Assembly (NCBI GenBank): GCA_040830765.1
Contig: JBFOMH010000027.1
Span: forward strand, 37,273-101,272
DNA: 64,000 nucleotides
Direction of reading: 5' to 3'
DNA from: Puniceicoccaceae bacterium
Lineage (GTDB): Bacteria; Verrucomicrobiota; Verrucomicrobiia; Opitutales; Oceanipulchritudinaceae
How positions within the stretch are numbered: position 1 is the stretch's first letter; each line of letters starts with the position of its first letter. Both the position numbers and the translations under genes were made by a program. The notes under the pieces are model-generated. The model ran no database searches, was not told the origin of the DNA, and saw nothing but the letters and a program-made list of their open reading frames with translations. Shown here piece by piece: positions 19,142-33,935 of the stretch.

Positions 19142-19151
19142 CCTTTCCCAC

Positions 19152-19487
19152 ATGGAAATCGTTGCTTACCTGAAACCAACCTGTGGCTGGAGTAATGGCG
19201 TTCGGGCCATTTTCCAGAAGTACAACCTCTCCTACGAGGAGAAGGATATCATCAATAGCGCAGAGAACTACGCCGAGATGGTTCAGCGTTCGGGCCAGCC
19301 GCTCTCACCCTGTGTGGTGGTCGATGGTGTCATGCTGGCCGACGTCAGTGGTGAAGAAGTGGAAAATTACCTTCTTTCCAACGAGTTGGTCTCCCCCAGC
19401 GAGTCCCAGACGGATGTCCCCACCAATGCCCCTTGCACGGACGAGGAGCATGAACAGATGCGCTCCAAGACCATCCGGTTCTTCTAG
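19152..19487 (+). CDS. Monothiol glutaredoxin-like protein
   Basis: YLKPTCGWS, RSGQPLSPCVVVDG. Confidence 0.8.
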   Translation: MEIVAYLKPTCGWSNGVRAIFQKYNLSYEEKDIINSAENYAEMVQRSGQPLSPCVVVDGVMLADVSGEEVENYLLSNELVSPSESQTDVPTNAPCTDEEHEQMRSKTIRFF

Positions 19488-20734
19488 TCCGAAGGTGCCT
19501 TGGTTTCTGAGGCTGCAAATACAGCTTCGGCTACCCGCTTACCCGAGTCCAATCCGTCATCGCCGCTGAACAGGTAATGGATGCCGCCGTAGACGCGGCT
19601 CCAGCTGATTTCCACTGCACATGCCCATAAGCTTGTGAATTCTCGCGTATGGCCGGGTACGGAGTCACTTCTCGTTGAGAATGCGAGGTCATCTGTCCCG
19701 AAGTACAATTGCAGAAACCGCGCCGCTGCTCCACTGAAGCTACTGTGCCCGGAGGGGTATTCCGGGTGGGGTGGGGATTCCAGATAGGAGTTCCATGAAG
19801 TGTCGGGCTCGGTCTGGCTGTTGCCATCCCGTTCGGCCTCGTAAATCGCGGTGATCGGGCGCCAGAAGTTGAACCGGTACTTTGCTTCCCAGCAGACAAT
19901 TCCGGCATCAAGCATGGCCGTGTTCAGCCATGCCAGAAGGTGCGCTTCCTCCATCAAGGAGTAGTCCCGCTGGCGGGCGATTCCTGAGGCAATCTGGTTC
20001 CAGTGCCCGGGGGGGGTGATGGTATAGCTGAAATCCGACCAGAAGCGCGCGATGATGGACTGTTCCTCGGTTCTCAACTCGCTTTCCTTCGCCCCGATGG
20101 TATGAACCTGGTGCAGCGCCGTGGCCCAGTCGGCAGAGGTCATGTCGGGAGGTCCGGGAGGGAGGAAACTCTCAAGCTCTTCGATGACGTAGGGCCTGAC
20201 ATGACGCGCATGGGGTAATTCCGGCGGCCGGTAGGAAGGGGGTGTCCGTCTCCACTGACCGGGCTCGTCCCGGGGAACATAGGTCAGGCTCCCGCTGAGA
20301 CGGTCATCCTCCCGGGCCTTGAGATGTGCGATGGCACAGCGCTGGCCAATCGCCCGGGCCCTTTGCAGGACGTCGGGTTCTGCGGAAGCTGTCTGGTCCT
20401 CCAGAAGCCTGTCGAAGAGGGGCCTGGATGAAGGGAAGAGCGCGAGAGTGGCTGTGTGGGCCGCATAGGCGGCTGCCAGCTGCGGAGGGGGAGGATTTGC
20501 TTCCTCCTGATCCAGCTCATCCATGAAAAAGGGATAGGGAGCATCCGGACTGCACTGCAGGGCGGCATCAAAGGCTGCCTGGTGGACAATTGCCAGATTC
20601 CTGACCAGCAGGAGCGGGGGTGGTGTCTGCGGGCGGATGGCGGCCAAAATGGCCCCATTCCATTCAACCATGGTATTCCCGGGCAAGGAAGTGGCAGCAG
20701 TGAAGACCAGCAGTATCGGCAGGAACAACTTCAC
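19484..20734 (-). CDS. Secreted vanadium-dependent haloperoxidase / PAP2-superfamily protein
   Basis: Signal peptide; WEAKYRFNFWRP, PPHPEYPSGHS, SRVYGGIHY, TPPGHWNQIA. Confidence 0.85.
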   Translation of the reverse strand: MKLFLPILLVFTAATSLPGNTMVEWNGAILAAIRPQTPPPLLLVRNLAIVHQAAFDAALQCSPDAPYPFFMDELDQEEANPPPPQLAAAYAAHTATLALFPSSRPLFDRLLEDQTASAEPDVLQRARAIGQRCAIAHLKAREDDRLSGSLTYVPRDEPGQWRRTPPSYRPPELPHARHVRPYVIEELESFLPPGPPDMTSADWATALHQVHTIGAKESELRTEEQSIIARFWSDFSYTITPPGHWNQIASGIARQRDYSLMEEAHLLAWLNTAMLDAGIVCWEAKYRFNFWRPITAIYEAERDGNSQTEPDTSWNSYLESPPHPEYPSGHSSFSGAAARFLQLYFGTDDLAFSTRSDSVPGHTREFTSLWACAVEISWSRVYGGIHYLFSGDDGLDSGKRVAEAVFAASETKAPSD

Positions 20735-20738
20735 AGTC

Positions 20739-21887
20739 TCAAATGCCGGTCATTTTCACCGTCAGCCGGATGAGGCGATTGGGTTCGGAACCCGTTGTCA
20801 CAGGATGCAGGTCCCTCGTCTTGACCTCCCGTTTGCTGTCCACCATTTCCGAGCTCATTTCCTCGGTATTGCCTTCGCCACTGGACCAGGTTGCGCCGCC
20901 ATCCCCGGAGACTTCAACCATAAAGATGATATCATCGGCACCAGGATTGGCCCGGTAGGTGAGCGTAGCGTAACTTTCCTGATTCAGGCCGATTAATCCC
21001 ACCTCCGGCAGATCCTCGAAGTCGAACTCCCTCGGATTCAGCCCGAGGGCATATTCAAGCAGGTTGGGAATGGTGTCACCGTCCGGATCCGAGGCCAGTC
21101 CGCCAATGCGGTTGTCAGCCTGTTCAGCCGGAGTGAAGTTGGCATCCCGCCAGCCGACAAAGGGTGGGGGGCCAATCTGGATGGTAACCGGCAGGGAGGC
21201 CGTCTGGGTTCCTCCGGAGGAGACGGCAATGGCGGTCAGGGCGACAGCCCCTGATCCGGCAGCTGTCCAAGTCGCGGTGTAGGGAGCAGCCGTGTCGATG
21301 GAAAGGCTCTCTCCATCGATCTGGAACTCAACCGAGGTAATGCTGCCGTCGTAATCAATCGCCACGGCGCTGAGCCCGACATTACTGGAAGCGGAATACC
21401 GCTTGCCCTCGGCGGGCGAGGTAATGGCGATATAGGGGGCCCAGGCAATGGCCACCTCGGTCCCGGTGAGGTCGGAGATGATGACGTTGGAAAAGCTGAG
21501 GGCACGACTTCCTTCGGGAACTTCCGAGAGGAGGTTAATCTCCATGTCAGCAACCATCCCGTCGCCAAGTACCGCATTTGTATTGGAAATAACCACTACA
21601 CGGGTTTGTCCGCTGGCGACTGTTTCAAAGTCCAGGATATGTCCTGCGGCAGCGATCCCCTGCCTGACATCGGATAACTCGACCACTGCTGGATCGTAGA
21701 ACATGTCAAACTGCAGGGCGGTGATGCCGTCACCAGACCGAACCTCCATCGGGACCGAAAGGGTCTCGTTGGCCAGGCCGCTGGAGGGTCCCAGGTGCAG
21801 GGTGGTTGCCCCACTGGCCGGAAAGGCCGCCAACGCTACTGTCGCGAGAGCGGCTAGAGCAGTCCGGATGTTACGATTAGGCTTCAT
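20739..21887 (-). CDS. Secreted cohesin-domain protein with an Ig-like domain and a C-terminal DPDGD..NLLEYALG domain
   Basis: Signal peptide; TLSVPMEV..GITALQFDMFYDPAVVELSDV..G (cohesin-like); ITSPAEG..AIDYDGSITSVEF..DTAAPYTATW (Ig); DPDGDTIPNLLEYALGLNP. Confidence 0.75.
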   Translation of the reverse strand: MKPNRNIRTALAALATVALAAFPASGATTLHLGPSSGLANETLSVPMEVRSGDGITALQFDMFYDPAVVELSDVRQGIAAAGHILDFETVASGQTRVVVISNTNAVLGDGMVADMEINLLSEVPEGSRALSFSNVIISDLTGTEVAIAWAPYIAITSPAEGKRYSASSNVGLSAVAIDYDGSITSVEFQIDGESLSIDTAAPYTATWTAAGSGAVALTAIAVSSGGTQTASLPVTIQIGPPPFVGWRDANFTPAEQADNRIGGLASDPDGDTIPNLLEYALGLNPREFDFEDLPEVGLIGLNQESYATLTYRANPGADDIIFMVEVSGDGGATWSSGEGNTEEMSSEMVDSKREVKTRDLHPVTTGSEPNRLIRLTVKMTGI

Positions 21888-21916
21888 GTTTGATTGGACA
21901 ACTTGGATACGCTACT

Positions 21917-24061
21917 TCAATTGGCAGTGAACTGGGCGAAAGCCTCCAGCGTTCCAACTCCTGAAGGAATGACACCGGAGACAATGGCGGTTCCCCCGGT
22001 CATGGTGGCAGTTCCCGCGGTGGGCAGGGATACGGAACCCCCGGCGAAGTTAACCGTGACTGTTATGGAGGTGCCATCCGGGACATTGCTCCCTTCAACA
22101 ACCACATTGACTGTGCCGCCGTTGCTGAACACGACATCCGGAGTGGCGGTACTGCCCGAAGGGGGTTGGCTGACGGCTTCCCCGTCGACGGAAGAAATAC
22201 TCAGGCTGGGCTGGGAGGCCAGGAAGGCGGCAAAATTTTCCGCGACCGGGGAACTGGAGGACGGCTCGTTGGTGTGGGCATTGTTCTCCAGCGGGCGCTC
22301 GTAGGCTTCGAGACGGATTCGTCCAAGGTGGACGCCGCCGTTGTTGTCGCCACCGCGGACATCGATGAAGCCCGTTCCCAGCAAGCGGTCCGCGACCAGC
22401 TTGACCGCGCCACCGGAACCAATACCGGAATAGTCGTCAATGGTCCCGGAATTGTCATAGATCCGGTTGCCTCCCTTGGCACGGATTTCCCCGTTCAGGA
22501 TAATGTCCCGCGAGGATGCTATCAGAATAGCTCCACCGCCGCCGCCACCGCCGCTGCCATTTTCGGTCTCGATAGAGGGGGTCCCTCCACCTCCGGAACC
22601 GCCGATTAGCGGAATGATGAAATTGTTGCCATAGGTATTGTAGTGGGTCCCCCAACCACCACTGTCGAGGCTGTTATCGAACGGGCTAGTCCCGGCTGTG
22701 CCACCTCCCGGTCCTTGTCCCGGGGAGCCGGCATAGGAGCCAGAGTTGTTGAAGGCAATGCCCCCAAGTCCTCCGTCAAAGCCACCGGGACCCCCTTCGG
22801 CCACCTCGAGGTCGAGGGTCGTGGCAAAGCCGTTTTGTCCGGATACATTGACCACCCCGTCGATGGTCACATTGCCGGTGGCCAGCCAGACGACCGGCGT
22901 GTTGGCGGCATTCTTGGTGAAAATAACCGTCACGTTGGCAGGGACGTCTATTGTCGTGAAATTGTAGATTCCGGTAAGGTTGTCCCGCATATCAATGTAA
23001 TAGTTCCCTCCGATCACGTGATTCCAGTTGGTCCCATCAAAAGCATATGTAACACGGGTATAGTTCGAGTCTCTCAGGAAACCTGCGATGTGCAGGATCC
23101 GGTTCAATGACCCTCCGTGGTAAACCATCGCCGAGTGATAGAAATTCCTTGGTTGGATTTCGAAGGGATAGAGGAGGGGAAAAACTTCACTCCAGCCAAC
23201 CCCGTCCTCGAATACCCATGTACCCCTGTAGTTGGCATTGTTGGAGCCACCACGCATGACGACCACTTCGTTAACAGGGTCGTAGGCCATGCTGTGGTCT
23301 TGCCGGCCTGGAGGAGCAATCGCTGAAGAAATGATGGACCATTCCGACCCGTCCCATCCCCAAGTGTCGCTTCGACCGTTATACCCGCCATACATGAATA
23401 TACGGCTGTTCTTGCCGTTCCAGCACATGGCATGCTCGCTCCGTGTAGCCGGGCTTGTGGAAGGGGTTTTCTGGGTCCATAGCGTGCCATTCCAGACCCA
23501 GGTATCATTGATGTAACTCCCGTTGTAACCTCCAAAAAGGACAACTTCCTGCCGGAGAGGATCGTAGGCCATAGCTGTGCCTTCGCGGGGAGTCGGGCTG
23601 AGGACCGGTGACTTGTTGGTCCACGTACCATCCTTCCAGACCCAGGTGTCATTCATCCGGCTACTGCCGTTGAAGCCGCCGAATAGGACAACTTCCCCTC
23701 GGGCAGCGTCATAGGCCATGGCATGATTTCTTCGGGCCGGTGGAGAGGCAACGGGTGTACGGGGAGACCATGTGGTCCCGTCGAAGGTCCAGGTGTCAGC
23801 CAGATAAGTATTGGTAAATCCTCCAAAGACCACTGTCTCGTCGTTAAGTTCGTCGTAAGCTGCAGCGTGGAAGTAGCGGCTCGATAGCGCCACCGGGATG
23901 ACCAATGCACCGTCTGTGCCATTCGATCCACTGCTGAATGGCAGGTCATCCTGTGCCTCAAGGGAAAGGCCTCCCATCGCAAGGGCCATTGTCACGATAA
24001 CGGTGACGGCATCTCTGGTGGAATAGCGGTGTAGGTTCTTGATGGTGCTTATCGGATTCAT
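21917..24061 (-). CDS. Secreted Kelch-repeat beta-propeller plus Gly-rich domain protein
   Basis: Six repeats of R..HAMAYD....VVLFGG....DTW.WDG..W; Gly-rich GGPGGFDGG, GGSGGGG, GGGGGGAILIAS and GSGGAVKL motifs. Confidence 0.8.
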   Translation of the reverse strand: MNPISTIKNLHRYSTRDAVTVIVTMALAMGGLSLEAQDDLPFSSGSNGTDGALVIPVALSSRYFHAAAYDELNDETVVFGGFTNTYLADTWTFDGTTWSPRTPVASPPARRNHAMAYDAARGEVVLFGGFNGSSRMNDTWVWKDGTWTNKSPVLSPTPREGTAMAYDPLRQEVVLFGGYNGSYINDTWVWNGTLWTQKTPSTSPATRSEHAMCWNGKNSRIFMYGGYNGRSDTWGWDGSEWSIISSAIAPPGRQDHSMAYDPVNEVVVMRGGSNNANYRGTWVFEDGVGWSEVFPLLYPFEIQPRNFYHSAMVYHGGSLNRILHIAGFLRDSNYTRVTYAFDGTNWNHVIGGNYYIDMRDNLTGIYNFTTIDVPANVTVIFTKNAANTPVVWLATGNVTIDGVVNVSGQNGFATTLDLEVAEGGPGGFDGGLGGIAFNNSGSYAGSPGQGPGGGTAGTSPFDNSLDSGGWGTHYNTYGNNFIIPLIGGSGGGGTPSIETENGSGGGGGGGAILIASSRDIILNGEIRAKGGNRIYDNSGTIDDYSGIGSGGAVKLVADRLLGTGFIDVRGGDNNGGVHLGRIRLEAYERPLENNAHTNEPSSSSPVAENFAAFLASQPSLSISSVDGEAVSQPPSGSTATPDVVFSNGGTVNVVVEGSNVPDGTSITVTVNFAGGSVSLPTAGTATMTGGTAIVSGVIPSGVGTLEAFAQFTAN

Positions 24062-24119
24062 GGGTCGGTCCTTTTGATGGGTTAAATTGCTTTCAATGAT
24101 GTGTAGGCAGGTGGATCAA

Positions 24120-26837
24120 TCAGTTGTTATCGTAACTTACGCCGGAGCTGGCCACGTCGACACGGGTACCGGGCGGAAATTCGAAATCAGTCATATTGCT
24201 GTAGGAACTGGCAGTGGACTTGAGGAAGACAGAAATACTGGTGGGCACCTGGAATGGCTGGTCGTTGTAGTAACTGTAGGGACTGGAGCTAATCCGGAAA
24301 TCGATGTTGCCATAGATTCCGTAGGCATTTGCGTTCATGAAGGAAGCAGGGAATGAGCTGATACCGAGCAATGGGCGGCTTGCCGGATCGGAAGGATCGC
24401 TGTTTTCCGCGACCTCCCCGGCATCGTCGTAGCCATCGTTGTCGGTGTCCGGGTCGAAAGGATCGGAGTTGGCCGCGAACTCCTCCTTGTTCAGCAAACC
24501 GTCATTGTCGAAGTCCTCATCCCCGTCCTTGATTGTGTTGTCGTCGGAATCCTCATCCTGGGGGTCGGTGCCGTAAAGGATCTCTGCGGTATTGGTGAGG
24601 CCGTCCGCGTCGTTATCCTCCTCGCCATCGAGAAGTCCATCCCCATCCGTGTCCGGATTGAAAGGATCCATACCGAGGATGACTTCCACGTTGTCCGGCA
24701 GGCCATCGAGATCGCTGTCCTCAAATCCGGCCTGGGTAAAGCGGGAGACAAACTCCTCGGTAAGGGCATTGCCGGCAAGGTCCTGAATGGTCTCGAGGAC
24801 CCGGATGGTATGGGTTCCTTCCTCGGCGGGACTGGCAAAATTAAAGTAGACTGTACGGGTGTCCTCATCCCATTCCAGAGAGCCATCGATTCGTTCGTCA
24901 TCCCCGTTGCCGGGGACCCCGTCCAATCCTTCGCTGAAGACGCGGACTCCCGGATTGGCGGGAGTCTCAGGGGGTGCATCCGGTGGCGGCGTCCCGAAAA
25001 TGGTGGCAGTGTCCAGGACTTCACTGAAGGTGATGGCGATGGTGGAAAGTTCCCCGACAATGGCATTGTTGCGGGGAATGACATTCATGACGAAAGGTGG
25101 TGTCCCGTCCGGTGTCAGGAGGATGATGATTTCTTCCGCCCGGGCGATGTTGCCCCCGGTGTCGGTAGCGACTGCTTCAATTGTGAACCGGTCCTTGGTG
25201 GCTGTGATGAGCGGGGTAGGGAAGCGGAATTCAAAGGGGAAATTCCCATCGATGAAGCGGGACTCGCCATCGATGATAAATTCAACATTTCGGACCTGGA
25301 TATCATCACCAACCCGTGCCGTAGCGGTCATGACCTTCCCTTCCTCGAACTGATTCTCGATAGCGTCGGTGACCAGTTCGATGCTGGGTGGGATTCCCCC
25401 GGAGTCATAAGGCAGGTAGTTGAGGACGAGCAGGTTGCCATTTTGCTGGCCGGCCTTCCAGTCCGTCACGTAAGCCAGCCCATTGAAAATAGCAACGGAG
25501 CGTGCGATATCCGGTGTTTCAAAGATAACCACGAGTTCGGAAAGCTCGCCGTTGTCCCCAATTTCATAGAGGGTGACATTCTGGGGGCCGTCGAGGGCTC
25601 CATTCGCACTGACAGCTGCAACCATCAGGCCTGATCCGTTGGCAGCCCCCCATTTGAACCCAAAGACCCCGAGGTCATTGAAGCTCCGCAATTCCGGCGC
25701 CAACGGGTCATCGAGGCTAAGCGTCATGAAACCCCGCTCATGGTTGAGGACGGCAAAGGTGTCGCCGACGAAAAGCCGCCTCACATGGTTGCAGCAGGGA
25801 ACCCGGCCCTGGAGGTCCAGGCTGTGAACCGTGTTGAATTGATTAAATTTGATATCAACCGTATAAAAGCGGTTTCCGGCCACCGCATAGAGGACGTTCT
25901 TGCCCAGTCCGAGGTCGGAAACAGGATCCCCGGTGGGAAGGATTCGTGCCAGTTCGATCCCGGTATTCAAATCCACCCAGACAATAAATCCATTTGCCAG
26001 CCCGGCATAGGCCTGGTCCCCGTTGATGGCTACTGAGTGGACGGGGCTCCCCAGGTGAAGGGTGCGTTCCACTGTCGCAGAAGGAGGGTCAGTGATATCC
26101 ACCACGACCAGTCCGCCGTCACTGGCCGCCACTGCGATCAGCTCCGCGGCACAATCGACATCGCGGATTGTACCGTCGATGGGGACATCGGAGATGCGGA
26201 TCGGGTTGGCCGCTTCCGTGACGTTGAAGACCGTAATGCCGTAATTGACCTGTCCGACGATGGCGAGGTTGTTGTTGACGCAGATGGTGGTCGCTCCTTG
26301 AACCAGCCCGGCTCCGACGATACCGGTTTCAACGATAAATCCATCCAGTGGATTGAGTCCCTGGACGACTTCCGGTCCATCGCGAATTCCGTCCCCGTCG
26401 GTATCCGGATTAAAAAGATTTGTCCCGACAATGAATTCCCGGAGGTCGCTAAGGCCGTCGCCATCGGTATCGAAATCATCGAGGTCATAATACTCGTAGG
26501 CCGGGATTTCCGTATCGACTCCATTTGGGCTGGTAGTGAAATCCTGAGTCGCAACACCGAGGTTCTCAGTGTAAAGCGCGTACAGGGTGTAATTCGTATT
26601 GGGAGCGAGGATAAGATTGTTAAAGCCACCAAAGTCCATCTGTCCCTGTCTGGCGGTCCTGCCTGTATCTCGCTCGATGATGATGTAGTAGAACAGTCCC
26701 TGGTCCGAGACGGCCACCCTCTGGGCTTGCAAACCGCTCCACGCCAAGGCACTGGCCAGCGCCAGGGCAGTAGCCGTGACCAGCCGCAGATAACGGTAGT
26801 AAGGACGGCAATTGGGCTTGGTGGCAAAGCGGTTCAT
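24120..26837 (-). CDS. Secreted protein with TSP3-like Ca-binding repeats, LVIVD-type propeller, Ig-like domains and C-terminal 23-aa repeats
   Basis: Signal peptide; DTDGDGLSD..E...GT....PDTDGDG repeats near both ends; GITVFNVTEAANP, GLVVVDITDPP, GFMTLSLDDPLAP; DGTPPFVMNVIP..IAITFSE..IQDLAGNAL (Ig). Confidence 0.8.
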   Translation of the reverse strand: MNRFATKPNCRPYYRYLRLVTATALALASALAWSGLQAQRVAVSDQGLFYYIIIERDTGRTARQGQMDFGGFNNLILAPNTNYTLYALYTENLGVATQDFTTSPNGVDTEIPAYEYYDLDDFDTDGDGLSDLREFIVGTNLFNPDTDGDGIRDGPEVVQGLNPLDGFIVETGIVGAGLVQGATTICVNNNLAIVGQVNYGITVFNVTEAANPIRISDVPIDGTIRDVDCAAELIAVAASDGGLVVVDITDPPSATVERTLHLGSPVHSVAINGDQAYAGLANGFIVWVDLNTGIELARILPTGDPVSDLGLGKNVLYAVAGNRFYTVDIKFNQFNTVHSLDLQGRVPCCNHVRRLFVGDTFAVLNHERGFMTLSLDDPLAPELRSFNDLGVFGFKWGAANGSGLMVAAVSANGALDGPQNVTLYEIGDNGELSELVVIFETPDIARSVAIFNGLAYVTDWKAGQQNGNLLVLNYLPYDSGGIPPSIELVTDAIENQFEEGKVMTATARVGDDIQVRNVEFIIDGESRFIDGNFPFEFRFPTPLITATKDRFTIEAVATDTGGNIARAEEIIILLTPDGTPPFVMNVIPRNNAIVGELSTIAITFSEVLDTATIFGTPPPDAPPETPANPGVRVFSEGLDGVPGNGDDERIDGSLEWDEDTRTVYFNFASPAEEGTHTIRVLETIQDLAGNALTEEFVSRFTQAGFEDSDLDGLPDNVEVILGMDPFNPDTDGDGLLDGEEDNDADGLTNTAEILYGTDPQDEDSDDNTIKDGDEDFDNDGLLNKEEFAANSDPFDPDTDNDGYDDAGEVAENSDPSDPASRPLLGISSFPASFMNANAYGIYGNIDFRISSSPYSYYNDQPFQVPTSISVFLKSTASSYSNMTDFEFPPGTRVDVASSGVSYDNN

Positions 26838-26861
26838 GGCAATCAATTCATCAACAGGTTG

Positions 26862-27260: not shown

Positions 27261-29509
27261 TGTGGAATCACCTCGCTGGAGGTTGTGCCGGGTACAGGTT
27301 CAGGAACCTGGAGCACCGCTTCAGAAACAGGGCCGAGGGTGTTTTCCCTGGTTATGGCGGCGAGTTGGAAAGTGAAACTGCTACGATCCTCGAGTCCTGG
27401 CAGGGTGTACTTGAATTGGGGGCCAGCCAATGGTGGAAGGCTGTTAAGCCGCCGTATGTTGCCTTCCTGGGCGTAGTCCACCATCAGCGCATAGCCGACC
27501 AGGCCGGCTTCCTCGAGGTCCTTGGGTGTCGTCCAGGACAATTGCGCCACGGCTGGACCTTCTTCCTGCTCGACAAGGACAACCTTCAAGTCAGCAGGCG
27601 GTTCGACACCTTCGGGCAGGCGGTCTGAGCGAATCCAGACGGTTGTTGGGAGGCTTGCCTCAGCCGGCCGGACGCCTCCGACGGCGAGCACCGAAAAGCG
27701 CGGCTTCAGGCCCTTTTCGAAAGTGTCGCTGGAGAAAGTCACGGAACGGGTGTCCGCTGGCCAATCCATCATCCCGGGTACCGGTTGTCCGTCCATGAGA
27801 ATCCTGAAGCCTTTCAGGTCATGGAACGATTCGTCATACTCCCAGTTCAATTCGACCGAATAGGCGTTACGGTCAAAGCTGGCCGTGACCCCGGTAACCG
27901 GAGGCAACTGTAGGGCGGGCATGTATATGTCAGTGGTTGCCGGTTCCCCGGTGATGCCTTCCTCAGTGATGGGCAGAAGGCCCACCCGGATGAAGCGACC
28001 GCCCGATATGTCGAGGGGATAGAAGTAGCGGTTGCCCTGGAATGGTTTGATCTGTGCCTGGAGGCGAAGATTCCCCTGTTCGGTGGCGTCACTGAGAATG
28101 CGGAAGGAGGCTGTCCGTTGATCCCGGACCGACGGGAGGTCCCACTCAAGGAGGATACCCGGCTGGCCTTTCTGGACCTGGAAGCTGCCTCGGAAATTCT
28201 CGGGTTGTGGTGGCCGGCTCTGGCCCAGATAGAGGAGGACAATCCGGGGGCCGGCCCATTCCACATCCCACTTGTCGATGGCGATGACCCTGTAATCGTA
28301 TACTTTCGAGTATTCCTTGGAACCGGAGTCGCGGAAGGTCCGGGATTGCGGAGGGAGCAGGGTTGAGATACGCTCAAATTCACCGTTTTCCGCCCGTTCA
28401 ACATAGAATCCAGTGACGCGGTCCGCGGCATCCGCGGGGTAGTTCCAATCGATCTGGACGTCCGCCTCGTTGACCACCATGTGCCTGGCGATTTCGGCAG
28501 TGGGCAGCGGTCGAAACCGGTCAGCAAGGAATGGTATCTCCGTGCGTCCGAAAGTTGTTTGAAACATATTGCGTCCGACAATCGCGTAGGTCTGGTCGAC
28601 GTTCGCGTTTCCAGCATTGTCATGGAAGGTGAAATGCAGGGAGTTATCGTCTCCCTCGTTGCTGCCGATGGGATTGTTGACGAGGAGTTCCCATTCCCCG
28701 GATTCCTTATCCAAGCGGTAAATATCAAATCCGAAAAGGGCCCGCTCCCTTGCTGTTGCCCGGTCGTAGCGCCATTTAAGGACGACAATCCCGTCCCAGA
28801 CATGCTGTTCGACCTTGGGCGGTGCCCCGTTTTCAGGTGACAGCACCTGTGCTTGCCAAGTCGATACAGGAGTACTCGCTGTATATCCCGCATTGTCCAC
28901 GGCAAACAATCCGTACTCCCGCTCACCGACGCTGGCACCAGTGTCGACTGGTAAATGGTCGAGGTAGGCGAATCCACTGAAAAGGGCGATATTGAAATCG
29001 GATTTCTGGGACAGGCGGTCGCCGGACTGAAGTCCGTCGTAATTGCGGAGCAGGGTTAGGACTTCCTCCGAAGTCCGGTCCGGAATCCGGGTCCCGAAGG
29101 ACTCCGCCCGGACCTGCATCAGCTTGGCCCTGTCTTCTTCTGTCAATCCCTGGTTGGTCCAGTCCCTCTCCGGATGAAAACTGGGACGAATCGGATCGGT
29201 ATGTAAGTCCTGCCAATCGTTCCCGCTGCCTTGACGGACTCTGAGACGATAACCGTTGAGCCAGAGCGGCCAGTTGCGGGTTTCCCAGTAGAGGCGGACA
29301 AGGTCCTGCTCCGGTTCGACGAATCCGTACAAGGTGGCCTCTGGTGCCCGGTTGTCGCCGAGAGCTGGTTGAGCATGGGCGACCGTTGCCACGAGCATGG
29401 GAATAATGCCAAGCACGATCCGCATGGCAGCAAGTCCCAGGCTGTGAAGCCTGGGTGGTTGCTGTTCTAAACTGGCTGACAGTTTGCTCATCCAATCAAA
29501 TGTACTCAT
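27257..29509 (-). CDS. Secreted multi-fibronectin-type-III-like protein
   Basis: Repeated L.W.......G[FY].[IV] and Y.Y.V.A motifs (VRLYW, VVLKW, VQIDW, ILLEW, VELNW, AQLSW). Start overlaps the upstream stop. Confidence 0.75.
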   Translation of the reverse strand: MSTFDWMSKLSASLEQQPPRLHSLGLAAMRIVLGIIPMLVATVAHAQPALGDNRAPEATLYGFVEPEQDLVRLYWETRNWPLWLNGYRLRVRQGSGNDWQDLHTDPIRPSFHPERDWTNQGLTEEDRAKLMQVRAESFGTRIPDRTSEEVLTLLRNYDGLQSGDRLSQKSDFNIALFSGFAYLDHLPVDTGASVGEREYGLFAVDNAGYTASTPVSTWQAQVLSPENGAPPKVEQHVWDGIVVLKWRYDRATARERALFGFDIYRLDKESGEWELLVNNPIGSNEGDDNSLHFTFHDNAGNANVDQTYAIVGRNMFQTTFGRTEIPFLADRFRPLPTAEIARHMVVNEADVQIDWNYPADAADRVTGFYVERAENGEFERISTLLPPQSRTFRDSGSKEYSKVYDYRVIAIDKWDVEWAGPRIVLLYLGQSRPPQPENFRGSFQVQKGQPGILLEWDLPSVRDQRTASFRILSDATEQGNLRLQAQIKPFQGNRYFYPLDISGGRFIRVGLLPITEEGITGEPATTDIYMPALQLPPVTGVTASFDRNAYSVELNWEYDESFHDLKGFRILMDGQPVPGMMDWPADTRSVTFSSDTFEKGLKPRFSVLAVGGVRPAEASLPTTVWIRSDRLPEGVEPPADLKVVLVEQEEGPAVAQLSWTTPKDLEEAGLVGYALMVDYAQEGNIRRLNSLPPLAGPQFKYTLPGLEDRSSFTFQLAAITRENTLGPVSEAVLQVPEPVPGTTSSEVIPQ

Positions 29510-32500
29510 CGATTTCAGCCGACTCGGATTCTCCTCCAGCGGAAATAGTGACCGTGCCACGAATACGCGTGTTGGACCCGTTATCTGTGATGTCAACGTT
29601 CCCGGAGGCGGTTACCGAATAAACAGAAACACAATCGTCACCACAAACGAGGCAGGGCCACTTGACCCGGACAGTGCTGGTTCCGCCAACACTCGCCCTG
29701 ATCGTCCCGGTGAAACCCCTGCTGTCGAAATTGGCATTCAAGGCGCCAAAGAGTTGGATCGTCAATTGACCGTCAATCCCGAATCCGTACCAGGTTGATG
29801 TATCGATAGCTTCATCACAACTGGAGCTGTTGAATCCATCCGGGTAAGTGTAGTTAAATTGCCCTTCATAATCAAATCGCCCGAAGACCCGCCCGCTGAC
29901 GCTGCCGGAAGAGGTGAGGGGAGCGCTGACATTGATTCCGGCCCGGACATCGACCACGTCGAGGATTTGGCCAGTGGCGTTCTCCCCGTTGACGGTATAG
30001 CGGGAGGCGGAGATGGCGAAGCGGATGCTGCCGGAATTGAGCCTGAGGATACCGCCATCACCCGGTGGAATGTTGATGGTGGAATTAAGGTCACCCTGGA
30101 TCATTTCAGAGCCAAGGGTATAACTGATATTCAGGTCGCCTTGGAAGATGTGGGGTGCATTGGCCGTCACCTTGACCGAACCTTCAAGCTGGATTGTTGT
30201 TGCCGCCCCAAGGATCAAACGGGCATAGCCCTCGAGGAGGGCCAGGTCCCCGACATCCGCTATCCCCAGGCCAAACCCGATCGTGAGTGACCCCTGGACG
30301 GCCTGACCGGTTCCGCCTGGCTGGGTGGGGGCTTCCCAATTGTATCCGAATTCACCCGCCAGGCTCTTGATTTTAAGCCCGGACTGCCCAAGCGGGAATC
30401 CAGGTGTCGAGACAGCGAGTGAGAAGAATCCATAATTGAAGGTTTCTGTCGCCCCGATGACGATTTCTCCACGTATGGATACCTTCTTGGCAAATTGCCC
30501 ACTGAAGTTGCCACGGAATTCCGTTTCGGCAAAGGTGATACTGATTTCAAAGGTGACGGGAGATTGGTCGACAGACCCGCTCAATTCACCGACCGAGACA
30601 TTCCCCTTATCATCGATTTTGAAGGTCTTCACGGCCAACTCGAGGGTGGGAAGGGAGACCATGGCGTCAAACTGCAGGGTGCCTTCCGCCTTGCTGTAAA
30701 CCGCCCGGCTGAAGGAAAACTCAATCTTCTGCTTATACTTGAGCCGGATTTGTTCGACCGTGAATTCCTCGACCGATCCGTCCCGGATGCGAAAGGTGAT
30801 ATTGGTGAAACTCTGGTCAAAGTCATTATGCTTGCCGGAGATTCCAACGCCCTCGATGCCCTCGAGGTCAAAGTCATAGGTGACAGTGGCACGAAGAGCG
30901 CCCGAAATGGTCATACCGAAGGCCATGATACCTTCCGCCCCGACTGTCGCCGTGACAGTTGTCGGCGTAAAGGCCAGCTCGAGGATAAACTCGCCATCGA
31001 CGTTGGTGACATCGGCAATGCGAATCCGTCCGGTACCATCGATGAATTCGATCTCCGAGTTGGGAATGGAGTAGTTCATTCCGAGGTCAAGCTGCTCAAG
31101 GGTGACGGAAAAGCCCTTGGTTGTGTAGGTCCCCGGTGTGTTGGCACTGAAGCGGGCATTGTTGATGTTCCCTTCACTGTCAAAGCTCTCAGCTGAAATC
31201 TTCCCGATGACCACATCCCCCTTCCGCAACTCGATCAGGATATTGGTAATGCCTTGAAAGTCCCATGCACCAGCAAATCCGGCCTGACCCAGCATGTAGG
31301 AATACTTGAACTGGCCGGTCAGGTCCTTCTTGAGGATGGCGATGCCCCCGACATTGACATCCTCCGTTTGCTCCACGGTAAAAGTCAGATCCCCACTGAG
31401 GTCACCCGAGTCGCTGACGGTCAGGCTGGCCGCGGTGACGTTGGCCTGGATAACCCCGAATTTGCCAAGGTCCTTCTTGCCTTCCCATTCCACCGTCACG
31501 TCCTTGAAAGCTCCTGTACTCTTGTGCTCCTTCCAACTGACGGTTGTTCCCTCAAGAGCGCCGCTCTTCTCGAACACTCCCTTCATTTCAACCGTCACTT
31601 CGGCGGGCGTGCTGTAGATGCAATAGTCACCCTCTTCGCCGGTGCTGACGATATTGCCTGGCAGGCTGACCTTCAACGGGCCAAAGCGGAGGGTGCCGTT
31701 CTTGTCAGGGCAACAATCCCCGCCGACACAAAGGCTTGCTTCCGTATAGCAATCCGTTCCGGGCACGGATGCCCGAACGGTGACGGAACCGGCTTCCTCG
31801 CCAGCGGTTACCTTGCCTGTCTCAGGATCAATTGTACATCCCTTGGCATCCCCTTCGATGGACCAGACGATTTCCTTGTCATCCGGGTTCACAGAAGTGG
31901 CTGCCATGGAGGTGGATTCCCCATCCGGAGGAATCTCTTCCGGGCTAAAAGATATGTCCGGAATTTCGATGACATTAACGGTGAAGGTGCCGGCAACAGC
32001 AACAGAGGCCGTATCCGGGCAATCGCCGTCGCCCTTTCCGCGGACCTCACAGGTGAAGGTGTATGTGCCACCGCGGTCAAAACTGGCGGACGAGGGATCC
32101 TCGGGCAGCCAGACATACTCCGGGGTATAGGAAACTGTCTGGACTTCCTTGCGGTCAGGTTGCTCATTTTCCGGGCAGACGAAATTATTGCTGATCGTCC
32201 GTTCCTTCTTCCCGTCACTGATCTCCGTCCCGGTAATGGTGGGTGCCGATACAGAGTCCCCGGAACAGATTTCCATCTCCTCGTCGGGGAAGGAACCGGC
32301 CTGGGTTACCGCACCGGACTCTTTGCAGATCCATTCTCCTTCGGTCTCTGTGCCGGTTTCGTCGCAGGGCTCATCATCCTCTTCATCATCGTCTTCCTCC
32401 TCGTCCTCATCTTCGTCCTCGCTGCCGTTTTTCTTGGTCCGGGTCTGCGTTCCGGGCTGGGTCGGGTGCCATCCGGGCTGACGGATTCCAGTACCTGGAT

Positions 32501-33935
32501 CCGAGACCACATAGAGCCCGTCGTCCGAAACCGTCATTGGCCCGGCGATTTCCCAGGTTCCCTTGTCGTGATTAAAACTCCAGAGGGAGCTCTTTTCGCC
32601 CGGTTGCAGGCGTTCACCGGTTACAGGATCCGGAAGATTGGGAAAGCGGACTGGAATAGGGACATCGAAATTGGTGGCACCGTCGGTCTGAACAGTGATG
32701 ACCATCGCGGGATTCAAGCCTTCCGGCAGGGGCTCCGGCAACCGGTCCGGGACGACCGGGGCGATGCCTACCGCACCACCACGGCTCCCGTCATTAGAAA
32801 AGAGGGCGTTAGGGGGGATTGTCAGGGATACCCTTTGCAAATCCTCAGGATCGTAATCCCGGGGAACGCCCTGGGCTGGGACGGCGTTCAGGACCGACGC
32901 CGGAAAGGTGATTTCAGTGGATTGGGTGGCACTGACAGTCGTCAGGGAGCCTTGGCGAACGAGGGGAAGGAAGACTTCCCCGTTGCCGTTGACGAGATTG
33001 TCCGTGCGGCCGGCAACGGCGAACCAGGGTTTGGCAATAAAGGGATAATAATCGCCATTCGGATAATCCGACTGGATGGGCGTAAAGCCGGCCGGTGGAT
33101 TGGACTTGGCCTGTCGGCCGTCGAGGTTGACGAAGAACCTGCCGGCGGGAGTATTCTCAAGGACGAATCTGCCATCCGGTCCGGTCGTGGTGCGGATCGT
33201 TTCCTCGGCCCCGATGACTTCAATGATGACGCCTTCCAGTGGGACCTTGTAGTAATTGGGGCCCAGTTCAGCAGTGTAGACCACCCCTTGCACGGAGGTT
33301 CCTGGCAGCCCGGCGATACTGCAGGTGTCGAAGTCCATGAAAGCGGTTCCGCCCGCCTGTCCGTCCCCGTCGGGATCCAATTCCCGCCCAAGATAGTCGA
33401 ATACGCCGGTCCCGTCAAAGACCACCCGGATGCGTGCGCTGCTAGGCAAGTTTTCCTGGAAAAAGAGCGTGGCCTTGAGTCGGTCCTGCGATAGCTCGAC
33501 CCGTGAGAGCAGCTTTTTTCCGGCGAAATATCCGGCAAAGTGATCGGTCGTCAGGACGGTGTCTTCCGCCAGCGGAAGGCTGAACCGGGCGATCGCTTCC
33601 CGCGACAGGCTGACATTTTCCTCGCCATCGGTAGGGCTGAAGGCGGCAACCTGGAGAAGCGGAAAAGGCGTAAATGGATTCCGCTCGAGAATGATGTCTG
33701 TCAGTGATTGAACATCATAGGTATTGAGGTAGCTGTCCCGATTGACATCGGCGAAGGGCACCAGGTTCGTCTCAAGGAATTCGGAGCCCTGCAGGTGATT
33801 TACCAAAAGGACGATGTCCTTGATTGTTGGCTGCCCGTCGCCATCCAGATCACCCAGATTCACCGGGTCCTGACCATAAACTGCGAGAGGCAGTAGGGCT
33901 ACTGTGATTATTCGAGTGAGCCAGTCCCTGAACAT
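29496..33935 (-). CDS. Giant secreted protein: dockerin, Ig-like and carboxypeptidase-regulatory-like domains, acidic/Cys-rich segment, long beta-rich C-terminus
   Basis: Signal peptide, then GDLDGDGQPTIKDIVLLVNHL...ADVNRDSYLNTYDVQSLTDII (duplicated dockerin Ca loops); FSPTDGEENV (Ig); TTTGPDGRFVL; 17-residue D/E run. Confidence 0.8.
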   Translation of the reverse strand: MFRDWLTRIITVALLPLAVYGQDPVNLGDLDGDGQPTIKDIVLLVNHLQGSEFLETNLVPFADVNRDSYLNTYDVQSLTDIILERNPFTPFPLLQVAAFSPTDGEENVSLSREAIARFSLPLAEDTVLTTDHFAGYFAGKKLLSRVELSQDRLKATLFFQENLPSSARIRVVFDGTGVFDYLGRELDPDGDGQAGGTAFMDFDTCSIAGLPGTSVQGVVYTAELGPNYYKVPLEGVIIEVIGAEETIRTTTGPDGRFVLENTPAGRFFVNLDGRQAKSNPPAGFTPIQSDYPNGDYYPFIAKPWFAVAGRTDNLVNGNGEVFLPLVRQGSLTTVSATQSTEITFPASVLNAVPAQGVPRDYDPEDLQRVSLTIPPNALFSNDGSRGGAVGIAPVVPDRLPEPLPEGLNPAMVITVQTDGATNFDVPIPVRFPNLPDPVTGERLQPGEKSSLWSFNHDKGTWEIAGPMTVSDDGLYVVSDPGTGIRQPGWHPTQPGTQTRTKKNGSEDEDEDEEEDDDEEDDEPCDETGTETEGEWICKESGAVTQAGSFPDEEMEICSGDSVSAPTITGTEISDGKKERTISNNFVCPENEQPDRKEVQTVSYTPEYVWLPEDPSSASFDRGGTYTFTCEVRGKGDGDCPDTASVAVAGTFTVNVIEIPDISFSPEEIPPDGESTSMAATSVNPDDKEIVWSIEGDAKGCTIDPETGKVTAGEEAGSVTVRASVPGTDCYTEASLCVGGDCCPDKNGTLRFGPLKVSLPGNIVSTGEEGDYCIYSTPAEVTVEMKGVFEKSGALEGTTVSWKEHKSTGAFKDVTVEWEGKKDLGKFGVIQANVTAASLTVSDSGDLSGDLTFTVEQTEDVNVGGIAILKKDLTGQFKYSYMLGQAGFAGAWDFQGITNILIELRKGDVVIGKISAESFDSEGNINNARFSANTPGTYTTKGFSVTLEQLDLGMNYSIPNSEIEFIDGTGRIRIADVTNVDGEFILELAFTPTTVTATVGAEGIMAFGMTISGALRATVTYDFDLEGIEGVGISGKHNDFDQSFTNITFRIRDGSVEEFTVEQIRLKYKQKIEFSFSRAVYSKAEGTLQFDAMVSLPTLELAVKTFKIDDKGNVSVGELSGSVDQSPVTFEISITFAETEFRGNFSGQFAKKVSIRGEIVIGATETFNYGFFSLAVSTPGFPLGQSGLKIKSLAGEFGYNWEAPTQPGGTGQAVQGSLTIGFGLGIADVGDLALLEGYARLILGAATTIQLEGSVKVTANAPHIFQGDLNISYTLGSEMIQGDLNSTINIPPGDGGILRLNSGSIRFAISASRYTVNGENATGQILDVVDVRAGINVSAPLTSSGSVSGRVFGRFDYEGQFNYTYPDGFNSSSCDEAIDTSTWYGFGIDGQLTIQLFGALNANFDSRGFTGTIRASVGGTSTVRVKWPCLVCGDDCVSVYSVTASGNVDITDNGSNTRIRGTVTISAGGESESAEIDEYI

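Follow-up and report, generated by a model that had tools for sequence, protein, structure and literature searches.

The window, a 64,000-nucleotide stretch of a Puniceicoccaceae contig from a marine-type Verrucomicrobium, contains seven co-oriented, tightly packed ORFs (g1 to g7) on the minus strand at 19484–33962. g2 and g3 overlap by 4 nt and the remaining gaps are ~4 to 58 nt, the ORF calls bearing out the packing and spacing of the original prediction. Pfam likewise agreed with its assignment of FN3, TSP3/Ig, Kelch and haloperoxidase-like proteins and with the absence of glycoside hydrolases, of which 0 families were found in the seven proteins at E ≤ 0.01. Signal peptides were called by eye on the translations. 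Promoter and terminator scans of the cluster yielded site counts below those of shuffled sequences, and RNA-library contigs span the flanks and the cluster alike, so they are no proof of cluster transcription.

The first gene, g1 (29496–33962), is a 1488-aa ORF that probably starts at the ATG at 33935, giving it a signal-like N-terminus, which is followed by a dockerin, a conserved N-module, an acidic linker and a captured C-terminal region of ~930 aa (g1C). The dockerin (33696–33857, minus strand; residues 36–89) has two DxDxDG-type calcium loops, both of which are present in an alignment of 28 family dockerins, and scored 26.8 bits against the Dockerin_1 cut-off of 22.9. Its model superposed on cellulosomal type I dockerins with Z 10.3–11.5, that of Clostridium thermocellum (2ccl_B) giving Z 11.5 and an rmsd of 1.1 Å over 62 residues. 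Together with the cohesin in the sixth gene, the dockerin predicted for the first gene was thus upheld by both Pfam HMM and fold.

The N-module (32436–33665, minus strand; residues ~100–509) consists of a Big_5/CopC-like Ig domain, Big_5 also being matched by Pfam, a transthyretin-like domain and a ZU5/GAIN-like beta-sandwich, and ends in a nearly invariant PGWH motif. The transthyretin-like domain also matched the teneurin TTR domain 8fia_A (Z 10.3), while the ZU5/GAIN match had Z ~8, a value that according to the tool can reflect a common arrangement. The N-module was modelled with pLDDT 86.9 and pTM 0.80. A search of 1.84 billion representatives returned 3373 relatives at E ≤ 1e-3 and 929 at E ≤ 1e-30. 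Identity across the phylum is 47–62%, unusually high for an adhesin, which hints at a role outside the reading presented here. The acidic low-complexity linker (32328–32423, minus strand; residues ~514–545) joins the N-module to the captured region and is predicted to be disordered, with pLDDT below 50 at model residues 476–516.

The captured region g1C (29499–32285, minus strand; residues 560–1488) is beta-rich; profile searches of the PDB gave relatives only for an N-terminal Ig-like stretch. Outside this locus it is encoded as a separate protein of ~940 aa (relatives of 871–949 aa, 31–47% identity), and a survey of 401 genomes of the phylum found it in two, counting the present one. One full-length g1 orthologue was found (1494 aa, 71% identity). 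g2 (27257–29596, minus strand; likely start 29509 or 29491) encodes a secreted FN3-containing protein (Pfam fn3, 37.1 bits), the FN3 stretches covering residues 328–410 and 645–729 in a PDB sequence search. No g2 homologue was present among 40 relatives at 1e-8, and a g2-like gene lies immediately 3′ of a g1C-like gene in locus L114 and in three of four metagenome loci. Together g1C and g2 make up an independent cassette of two genes that occurs elsewhere without the locus, among adhesin-like genes rather than toxin systems, and that has been fused in here. g3 (26862–27260, minus strand) encodes a small secreted protein of 132 aa that was originally called NTF2-like, a label that did not hold: it gave 0 Pfam and 0 NCBIfam matches, and no related ORF was found in 88 loci. 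It adjoins the cassette but, being without relatives, has nothing that ties it to the cassette.

g4 (24120–26846, minus strand) comprises calcium-binding TSP3 repeats, an LVIVD-type beta-propeller region, Big_7, Big_5 and further TSP3 repeats, with Pfam matches to TSP3_bac (80.1 bits), Big_5 and Big_7. The LVIVD repeats that had been proposed for it scored 17.4 bits, below the cut-off of 20.2, in g4 itself and pass in its homologues. g5 (21917–24061, minus strand) has a Kelch propeller (23012–23956; Kelch families up to 114.5 bits) followed by a Gly-rich right-handed beta-helix and a C-terminal Ig-like domain (21920–23008). The model of residues 340–714 (pLDDT 82.2) was closest to beta-helices of adhesins and two-partner secretion (TPS) proteins, EtpA giving Z 8.4 and HxuA Z 8.3; at Z ~8 such a match can, according to the tool, reflect a common arrangement. 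The helix also resembled HMW1, and the Ig domain was of RTX-adhesin type. Taken with FHA and the extender domains of RTX ice-binding adhesins, EtpA and HMW1 are the nearest folds to the C-terminal half of g5, at a borderline Z of 6.3–8.4. In contrast to TPS adhesins, however, the helix of g5 is C-terminal rather than part of an N-terminal TPS domain, and the cluster lacks a gene for a TpsB-type transporter. All folds found in the cluster are of the surface-protein or adhesin kind.

The single-cohesin protein g6 (20739–21887, minus strand) consists of a signal, the cohesin (21465–21800; residues 30–141; Pfam Cohesin 35.2 bits against a cut-off of 24.1), Big_7 (21231–21437) and a Verrucomicrobiota-type C-terminal domain (20742–21191). 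This last domain is common to many other secreted Verrucomicrobiota proteins, an occurrence that suggests it may retain proteins at the cell surface, and a separate putative cell-attachment module is likewise found in single-cohesin anchors of the C. thermocellum OlpA/OlpC type. Anchors vary among lineages while the cohesin is constant: short cohesin proteins have an ~85-aa C-terminal domain with an RFYRA..P end, and the Opitutales forms have Ig_7/BACON and a Trp-rich tail. The phosphate/vanadate-binding motifs of vanadium haloperoxidases are also those of the acid phosphatases of the PAP2 superfamily. The last gene, g7 (19484–20734, minus strand), encodes a secreted vanadium-haloperoxidase-like PAP2 protein (PAP2 43.6 bits, VCPO_2nd 27.0 bits), and its closest solved relative is the vanadium iodoperoxidase of Zobellia galactanivorans (4cit_A, E 5.6e-33, over residues 153–402). 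These phosphate/vanadate-binding motifs, KxxxxxxRP, PSGH and SRxxxxxH, can be read in its translation, as in the Zobellia enzyme.

The cluster represents one version of a locus that occurs across Verrucomicrobiota. The core of this locus is the N-module, usually fused to the TSP3/LVIVD-propeller/Ig region, followed by the beta-helix protein: 57 of 80 loci encode the N-module and the g4 region as one protein, the latter as its C-terminal half, the same fusion is seen in 107 of 109 representatives with a length of at least 1300 aa, a gene like the C-terminal part of g5 (g5C) follows the g4 region in 39 loci, and a g7-like gene was seen in 13 of the loci scanned. Roseibacillus ishigakijimensis KCTC 12986 (L055) and four further loci (L068, L067, L054, L042) have the order cohesin, dockerin/N-module, ~450-aa membrane-anchored protein, g4-like, Kelch/beta-helix and haloperoxidase-like, and L075 and L098 show the same order as far as their contigs extend. 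Co-conservation of the genes in the originally predicted operon holds for the N-terminal part of g1 and for g4 to g7, which recur jointly, and not for the independent g1C–g2 cassette or for g3. Moreover, since the g1 N-module and g4 are usually a single protein, a multi-subunit structure would have fewer independent subunits than had been supposed.

We examined the cohesin–dockerin pairing by copy number, co-variation and complex modelling. Pfam found 1 Cohesin and 2 Dockerin_1 matches in the genome, the second Dockerin_1 at the C-terminus of a 6958-aa protein, and family-specific HMMs found exactly 1 cohesin, 1 dockerin, 1 N-module, 1 g5C and 1 g7 in the assembled 97% of the genome. Among the best 80 of 383 relatives, taken from one-genome-per-species contigs, the dockerin was present in 25 loci; the cohesin gene lay within the locus in 19 of these, and in the other 6 (L032, L036, L039, L058, L059, L097) a contig edge fell at the expected cohesin position. 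No cohesin was found in the 54 dockerin-less loci, 40 of which have at least 2 kb on either side, with an HMM that was built from cohesins beside dockerin loci and could therefore miss very different ones; in L035 the cohesin was present and the N-terminus cut off. Neither Cohesin nor Dockerin_1 was detected by Pfam in the 79 neighbouring ORFs of 10 of the 54 loci at E ≤ 1e-6, a threshold only slightly above the scores of true family members. As the loci share ancestry, 19 against 0 does not represent 73 independent trials: on a quick tree of 83 N-modules the dockerin-less state requires 5 changes, of which well-supported branches force a minimum of 2, and the cohesin tracks each dockerin change, giving only 2 to 5 inferred transitions.

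When the g6 cohesin and the g1 dockerin were modelled together, the check that had been proposed for the pair, a complex was predicted with ipSAE 0.85, 0.85 and 0.86, compared with 0.01 for the best of three controls. Of 157 solved complexes, 116 attained the mark that the pair did, as against 2 of 215 mismatched pairs. Partner pLDDT was 76 and contacts were concordant over the three runs. The score may stem from the model's memory of solved cohesin–dockerin complexes. Because gain and loss of the two domains coincide among relatives, the pair very probably represents a genuine docking device of non-cellulosomal type whose partners would bind one another. On balance we favour, as the probable reading, a secreted, adhesin-like cell-surface assembly held by a private one-to-one cohesin–dockerin pair.

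A different view of the locus is suggested by what follows the N-module in some relatives. WapA of Bacillus subtilis is an Rhs/YD polymorphic toxin with a pathway-specific N-terminal domain. As in Rhs/YD toxins and teneurins, some family members have DUF6531, RHS repeats, DPxGL and a variable tail behind the N-module: DUF6531 and RHS repeats follow it in L025 (2152 aa), P0116, P0100 and P0117, and L025 and P0116 were checked and have canonical DPxGL motifs and variable tails of 120–250 aa. Peptidase_M15_3 (P0064), HH_signal (P0021) and DUF900, an alpha/beta hydrolase (lipase-like) domain (P0025), are also joined to it. The N-module could thus be a display or delivery platform for polymorphic effectors in contact-dependent antagonism or host interaction, anchored by cohesin–dockerin where the dockerin occurs, with g1C as payload and g2 and g3 as helpers. 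The position of g1C on a disordered acidic linker and its rare, patchy family, typical of captured payloads, fit this, as does a survey of PT-TG polymorphic toxins that, in its account of associated domains, includes cohesin and dockerin (PMC13483458). We nevertheless regard such a platform as unlikely. Most members lack a toxin-like domain, and nearly all long representatives have the g4-like adhesin region instead. Pfam (E ≤ 0.01) assigned no RHS, toxin or enzyme family to g1, and the g1C–g2 cassette has adhesin-like neighbours elsewhere. No immunity gene was seen and none is conserved: g3 is without relatives, and in L025 the g4-like gene follows the Rhs protein after ~100 nt. The N-module protein shares the TTR domain with teneurins and in its canonical form then has a beta-propeller, but this is mostly of LVIVD rather than NHL type.

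It is improbable that the cohesin and dockerin are merely neighbours without mutual binding, either as relics or with other partners. The genome does have a second dockerin-like module, and complex predictors can score family members well because they have memorised them; however, the co-variation is seen with three different gene orders and in several taxonomic orders of the phylum, conservation extends to both calcium loops and to the cohesin core, and the family-type pair is single-copy. Quite improbable too is a structural coat, in which Ig-rich proteins would form an S-layer-like lattice or sheath attached by cohesin–dockerin. The N-module is strongly conserved and predicted to be compact, and its best Foldseek matches were SbsC and Sap, both S-layer proteins (E 1e-7 to 1e-5), but with TM-scores of only 0.13–0.20 these reflect single Ig domains. 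Unlike an essential coat the locus is patchy: a scan of 41 genomes of the order placed the N-module in 7, the present one among them, and some genomes have several paralogous copies.

Cellulosomes gather enzymes via cohesin–dockerin pairs, and the cluster does include an enzyme gene, g7, but a cohesin protein that collects dockerin-bearing enzymes for polymer breakdown is very hard to reconcile with a single cohesin and two Pfam dockerins in the genome, no multi-cohesin scaffoldin, no catalytic family (glycoside hydrolase or peptidase included) in g1 to g6 by Pfam and no dockerin in g7. The pair resembles cellulosomal type I pairs in its two-calcium-loop dockerin, in a cohesin above the Pfam cut-off and in a confident predicted interface. 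It differs in its Gram-negative host, in an N-terminal dockerin on a non-enzymatic, adhesin-like protein, in pairing a single cohesin with a single matching dockerin in each genome where cellulosomal scaffolds have many clients, and in the absence of an SLH module, CBM and glycoside hydrolase. Closer by lineage is the 'planctosome', a genome-based hypothesis of non-cellulosomal cohesin and dockerin use in freshwater Planctomycetes of the PVC superphylum, proposed for peptide degradation (PMC6461901). As outlined there, it resembles the present locus in having thrombospondin type 3 repeats and in anchoring through a separate protein, and links peptidases for protein degradation on the basis of domain co-occurrence; here peptidases are absent and the support is gene-by-gene co-variation in 80 loci and a single-copy pair.

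The calcium-dependent, cohesin-anchored surface structure first proposed is thus partly supported, in its pairing and not as a seven-gene unit. For the adhesin-like assembly that we favour, we infer binding of the pair, location at the surface, dependence on calcium and an adhesive function. g6, in which a single cohesin is combined with an Ig domain and a putative surface-retention domain at the C-terminus, would be the anchor into which g1 docks via its N-terminal dockerin; g7 would be a recurrent accessory, and the g1C–g2 cassette, fused to the N-module in the present lineage, an extra displayed payload. Since the N-module, g4 and g5 correspond to a fused protein and an adjacent gene in most relatives, they are most probably one functional unit, which would bind a surface, a polymer or another cell.

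The original prediction for this region was a seven-gene operon encoding a calcium-dependent, multi-subunit surface structure anchored through its cohesin protein. As an observation this was confirmed as a whole, while its interpretation was only partly supported. Seven co-oriented open reading frames (ORFs) lie on the minus strand at 19484-33962: g1, a dockerin protein with a conserved N-terminal module (1488 aa); g2, an FN3 protein (779 aa); g3, a small secreted protein (132 aa); g4, a TSP3/LVIVD/Ig protein (908 aa); g5, a Kelch and beta-helix protein (714 aa); g6, a single-cohesin protein (382 aa); and g7, a haloperoxidase-like PAP2 protein (416 aa). Packing is tight, g2 and g3 overlapping by 4 nt and the remaining gaps being ~4-58 nt, and all seven proteins have signal-peptide-like N termini as judged by eye. 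Unrelated genes of the opposite strand flank the cluster, encoding Lgt and a CNNM/CBS protein on one side and CBS, Sir2 and solute-binding proteins on the other. On the cluster's own strand, 3.4 kb upstream, is a gene for a secreted-looking subtilase (Peptidase_S8, 1613 aa; 37348-42189, minus strand), which carries no dockerin and matches galactose-binding-like and LRR families weakly.

The domains originally called were upheld by Pfam at the positions given for them: Dockerin_1 in g1, fn3 in g2, TSP3_bac/Big_5/Big_7 in g4, Kelch in g5, Cohesin in g6 and PAP2/VCPO_2nd in g7. LVIVD in g4 fell under the Pfam cut-off, yet exceeds it in homologues, and the reported absence of glycoside hydrolases was borne out, no such Pfam family occurring in the seven proteins. 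The NTF2-like label of g3 was not upheld, as no Pfam or NCBIfam family matched the protein; among all seven, NCBIfam matched g4 alone, through partial TSP3 repeats (CglD, MtsD) that score far under the cut-offs. A catalytic fold was found in none of the g1 N-terminal module, g4, g5 or g6. Vanadium-dependent haloperoxidases (VHPOs) and PAP2 proteins are marked by KxxxxxxRP, PSGH and SRxxxxxH motifs and by the helical-bundle domains of VHPOs. All three motifs are readable in the g7 translation, which scores 43.6 bits for PAP2 (cut-off 27.2) and 27.0 bits for VCPO_2nd, exactly at the threshold of 27.0; its closest solved relative is the vanadium iodoperoxidase 4cit_A (E 5.6e-33). By its sequence, g7 belongs to the VHPO/PAP2 superfamily, whether as a vanadate enzyme or as a phosphatase. 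The idea that g5 supplies peroxide to g7 was dropped because no galactose oxidase came up in a PDB sequence search with g5, its only matches being Kelch domains from dynein, muskelin and KLHDC10.

Contigs from four RNA runs in two studies, two of the runs being oligo-dT metatranscriptomes labelled mollusc metagenome, are 99-100% identical to the region 18800-34600. In one run (X1), 30 of 30 bins are covered and a single 5249-base contig spans g1 and the g1/g2 junction. Flanking genes are also covered, including by a contig that bridges the convergent ends of lgt and g7. Because of this coverage of the flanks, and because the contigs show neither strand nor level, the data establish presence in RNA libraries and are not proof of co-transcription. 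Promoter and terminator scans were uninformative, giving 6 and 7 sites where shuffled sequence would give 7.4 and 14.4. The mollusc-labelled libraries do hint that the bacterium lives with an animal host.

Type I-like dockerins (Pfam PF00404) are marked by two tandem calcium-binding loop-helix (F-hand) segments of ~22 residues each, and cohesins (PF00963) by a beta-sandwich module recognised by the family profile. Both modules exceed their Pfam cut-offs here, residues 36-89 of g1 matching Dockerin_1 with 26.8 bits (cut-off 22.9) and residues 30-141 of g6 matching Cohesin with 35.2 bits (cut-off 24.1), or 35.7 bits in a six-frame search of the genome. The two calcium loops are kept in 28 aligned dockerins of the family, with G8, D9, D13, D20, D43 and D54 invariant, and the modelled g1 dockerin resembles the type I dockerin 2ccl_B (Z 11.5, rmsd 1.1 Å over 62 aligned residues); a PDB sequence search with g1 returned weak dockerin matches only. 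The complex of the two modules was predicted, alongside three controls, from alignments of 24 rows for the g6 cohesin and 28 rows for the g1 dockerin. Its ipSAE values were 0.85, 0.85 and 0.86, against 0.01 for the best control, with contacts agreeing across three runs and a pLDDT of 91 for the cohesin chain and 76 for the dockerin. Of 157 solved complexes 116 score this well, as do 2 of 215 mismatched pairs; the score shows likeness to a working pair rather than binding, and may partly be the predictor's memory, because many cohesin-dockerin complexes have already been solved.

The pairing appears to be one-to-one within the genome. A six-frame search of the assembly (96.9% complete, 40 contigs) found a single Pfam cohesin, that of g6, and two Pfam dockerins, and family-specific HMMs found exactly one each of dockerin, cohesin, N-terminal module, g5-type beta-helix and g7. 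The second Pfam dockerin occupies residues 6830-6876, at the extreme C terminus of a 6958-aa ORF on another contig (C6:47812-68685) whose N terminus bears an 'LEPRLLLSADP'-type motif. It was not matched by the family-specific dockerin HMM, but the 6958-aa protein might also dock onto the g6 cohesin as another client.

A cohesin-dockerin pair is marked by specific, calcium-dependent binding of its two modules. Here binding is a prediction, and the pairing is well supported, if indirectly, by comparison across loci. In the best 80 of 383 relatives among one genome per species, a dockerin starts the protein with the N-terminal module in 25. A cohesin gene is present in 19 of these 25, either upstream, or immediately after the beta-helix gene on its downstream side, or following a fused protein of 3000 aa. 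In the remaining six (L032, L036, L039, L058, L059 and L097), the contig stops on the side expected to hold the cohesin. No dockerin was detected in 55 loci, of which L035 alone has a cohesin, its N terminus being lost to the contig end. Cohesin is found in none of the other 54, 40 of which have at least 2 kb on either side, and in the dockerin-less forms a TSP3-like repeat occupies the dockerin's place. As an HMM-independent control, Pfam Cohesin and Dockerin_1 were absent at E ≤ 1e-6 from 79 neighbouring ORFs of 10 dockerin-less loci, the neighbours being unrelated housekeeping genes. We also built a quick maximum-likelihood tree of 83 N-terminal modules, after removing five duplicate loci and any fragment shorter than 300 aa. 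It requires 5 changes to account for the dockerin-less state, at least 2 of which are forced by well-supported branches; L046, which has both dockerin and cohesin, is sister to five loci with neither (98% support), and the module from the window lies in an all-dockerin clade of 14 rows. Cohesin tracks dockerin at every inferred change. Since the loci are kin, the contrast of 19/25 with 0/54 reflects a handful of events, not 73 trials.

The same comparison redefines the extent of the unit. Within the order, relatives exist only for g1 residues ~14-570, in 7 of 41 genomes including this one, and in each of the seven a g6-like cohesin gene lies beside or near the g1 relative. This region contains the N-module (residues ~100-509), composed of Ig, transthyretin-like and ZU5/GAIN-like domains. 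Used as a query against 1.84 billion representative proteins, g1 residues 30-545 gave 3373 matches at E ≤ 1e-3 and 929 at E ≤ 1e-30, the best 150 having 47-62% identity and lengths of 455-3237 aa; named relatives come from Opitutales, Akkermansiaceae and Verrucomicrobiae and bear generic names only. A g4-like region continues the same protein in 110 of 149 representatives, and in 107 of the 109 that are at least 1300 aa long. N-module and g4 region are fused in 57 of the 80 best loci and split in 13, the other 10 having no g4 region within the stretch, mostly on short or cut contigs. As they are mostly fused in relatives, the N-module of g1 and g4 correspond to the two halves of a protein that is usually single. 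Among the loci scanned, a g5-type beta-helix gene comes next in 39, a Kelch domain is found in 15 and a g7-like gene in 13. A six-gene form, comprising in this order cohesin, dockerin/N-module, ~450-aa, g4-like, Kelch/beta-helix and haloperoxidase-like proteins, is found in Roseibacillus ishigakijimensis KCTC 12986 (L055) and in L068, L067, L054 and L042, and as far as the contig end in L075 and L098. In these seven loci the ~450-aa protein, encoded between the N-module and g4-like genes, has a signal peptide and a C-terminal transmembrane helix; it has no Pfam or NCBIfam family and is absent from the window. The cluster is a variant of a phylum-wide Verrucomicrobiota locus. Of the proposed seven-gene unit, a conserved core (the g1 N-module, g4, g5, g6 and often g7) is well supported by comparison; a unit of seven subunits is not, because the C-terminal part of g1 (g1C, residues 560-1488) was captured with g2 as a cassette, and because relatives of g3 are lacking.

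Neither g1C nor g2 nor g3 had any relative in 88 related loci. Elsewhere, g1C is related to stand-alone proteins of 871-949 aa (31-47% identity), one of them from a Planctomycetota MAG, to a 1707-aa Fulvivirga protein and to one full-length 1494-aa orthologue with 71% identity. It occurs in 2 of 401 Verrucomicrobiota genomes, this one included. In the other (L114) a g2-like gene lies directly 3' of the g1C-like gene, an order repeated in three of four metagenome loci, the fourth contig stopping just past its g1C-like gene. The N-module, g4, g5, g6 and g7 are found neither in L114 nor in the four metagenome loci, and because the pair recurs at such loci, g1C and g2 make up a two-gene cassette of their own. 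Here the cassette has been fused, in this lineage, onto the N-module through an acidic disordered linker and it occupies the place of the C-terminal region and ~450-aa protein of the six-gene form. HMMs of that 'type A' locus, covering the ~450-aa protein and the g1-like C-terminal region, matched none of g1C, g2 and g3 (best E 0.11), so these parts have been replaced in the window rather than having diverged. For g1C itself the ESM Atlas gave nothing usable (best score 0.76), and its profile matched an Ig-like stretch only in the PDB.

Two further cassette loci have features of their own. At L114 (G264:C1:461000-480999) the g1C-like gene is broken into two ORFs of 612 and 358 aa and lies in a low-GC-looking stretch that opens on an integrase-like fragment, features pointing to a copy that is mobile or decaying. 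On metagenome contig L117 (1-18512) the genes flanking the cassette encode an 1806-aa protein with a Cohesin and six CARDB domains and two Dockerin_1 proteins, each having a type IX secretion sorting domain and one also having SprB repeats. In L117 the g1C-g2 cassette is therefore surrounded by another cohesin-dockerin surface locus, unrelated to the first, and the sorting domains and SprB repeats suggest that it comes from Bacteroidota.

The anchoring role proposed for g6 directs attention to its last ~140-150 residues (20742-21191), where a WxxxF / DPDGDG..NLLEYA motif is followed by a small beta-sandwich. This domain has no Pfam family and repeats at the C termini of many large secreted proteins in relatives. 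In this genome it matches 28 ORFs, and at least eight besides g6 have a near-full copy no more than 15 residues from the ORF end; carriers include C5:393887-409975, C3:48860-50134 and C36:6302-10198. Look-alikes in the ESM Atlas are Verrucomicrobiota clusters (TM 0.78-0.89), where it sits at the end of proteins that also bear oxidoreductase, CBM, lamin-tail or CotH domains. Cohesin tails elsewhere are a ~85-aa domain ending RFYRA..P, or Ig_7/BACON with a Trp-rich tail. The relatives of g6 thus resemble anchoring scaffoldins in carrying a constant cohesin on interchangeable C-terminal modules. We infer that these modules hold the cohesin protein at the cell surface, and the g6 domain may be a phylum-specific sorting or surface-retention signal.

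We judge an adhesin-like, cohesin-anchored surface assembly to be the best reading of the locus, and a reasonably probable one. The model of g5 residues 340-714 (pLDDT 82.2) is a right-handed beta-helix with an Ig-like domain, its nearest folds being those of adhesins or secretion domains, namely EtpA (Z 8.4), HxuA (8.3) and HMW1 (7.6), followed by RTX-adhesin extender domains (6.5); Foldseek gave no match at E ≤ 0.001. Two-partner-secretion (TPS) domains are N-terminal beta-helices recognised by a cognate TpsB transporter. The likeness of g5 to them is one of fold alone (Z 7.6-8.4), its helix sitting in the C-terminal half, and neither a Pfam TPS family in g5 nor a transporter gene within the cluster was found.

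The boldest reading remaining is of effector display, in which the N-module would be a hitherto unrecognised Verrucomicrobiota platform for interchangeable surface payloads, latched by cohesin and dockerin in one branch and possibly self-cleaving at a PGWH motif; we regard this as unlikely. The payloads would be Rhs cage toxins, cell-wall peptidases, lipase-like domains or adhesin arrays, and here the captured ~930-aa protein family with its FN3 partner. Rhs/YD polymorphic toxins are marked by a shell of RHS/YD repeats, by cleavage at a DPxGL motif and by a toxin domain of variable sequence at the C terminus. Relatives of the N-module carry DUF6531 and RHS repeats (L025, P0116, P0100, P0117), Peptidase_M15_3 (P0064), a hedgehog-type (LAS) peptidase domain (P0021), the alpha/beta hydrolase domain DUF900 (P0025), FGE-sulfatase with NHL repeats (P0053) or PPC domains (P0051), and in both Rhs forms inspected, L025 and P0116, DPxGL motifs occur along with a variable tail 120-250 residues long. 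Payload-bearing forms are a minority among the relatives, however, and g1 has none of these domains, with no Pfam RHS_repeat or DUF6531 match at E ≤ 0.01 that would place it among Rhs/YD toxins.

Self-cleavage was considered from the predicted fold. The model of g1 residues 30-545 (30 aligned sequences; pLDDT 86.9, pTM 0.80) contains, by all-against-all structural search, a CopC/Big_5-like Ig domain (Z 11.6) and a transthyretin-like domain (carboxypeptidase D, Z 11.0; fly teneurin TTR, Z 10.3). Autoproteolytic ZU5/GAIN domains are beta-sandwiches with a cleavage motif of His, a hydrophobic residue and Ser/Thr at the last strand. The last beta-sandwich of the N-module (g1 residues ~330-506, window ~32445-32975, minus strand; model residues 301-477) resembles the GAIN and ZU5 folds, with borderline matches to GAIN 4dlo_B (Z 8.5, 131 aligned, rmsd 3.6) and ZU5 3ud1_A (Z 8.3, 127 aligned, rmsd 3.2). 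A nearly invariant PGWH closes this domain, the family sequences diverging right after it, and the g1 sequence has no Ser/Thr nucleophile following it. On the model, the N-module may cleave itself at PGWH. Were effector display true, cohesin-dockerin docking would serve contact-dependent antagonism or interaction with a host, in a bacterium associated with molluscs. A cellulosome, marked by a multi-cohesin scaffoldin and many dockerin-bearing carbohydrate-active enzymes, is rejected, as this near-complete genome has one cohesin and two Pfam dockerins, and the cluster has no dockerin enzymes, no scaffold and, in its seven proteins, no glycoside hydrolase family.

Cohesin and dockerin modules are widespread outside cellulosomes, and to our knowledge almost nothing shows their role there. 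Among the concepts nearest to the cluster are the single-cohesin anchoring scaffoldins of cellulosomes and the 'planctosome' proposed for Planctomycetes (PMC6461901). Non-cellulosomal dockerins are suggested as adhesins in giant proteins of Omnitrophota (PMC10066038), and a survey of PT-TG polymorphic toxins counts cohesin and dockerin with the domains joined to them (PMC13483458). We found no account of this locus or of the N-module family in the open-access literature searched. The analysis defines a large uncharacterised Verrucomicrobiota family (929 cluster representatives) with a strikingly conserved N-module, now linked to Rhs toxins and cell-wall hydrolase domains, and flags a common C-terminal domain that may retain proteins at the surface in this phylum. 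With a one-to-one pair, in a single cluster, gained and lost together across the phylum, the locus is about the cleanest genomic natural experiment for a non-cellulosomal role of cohesin and dockerin, and because it is present in the culturable R. ishigakijimensis KCTC 12986 the question is directly testable.
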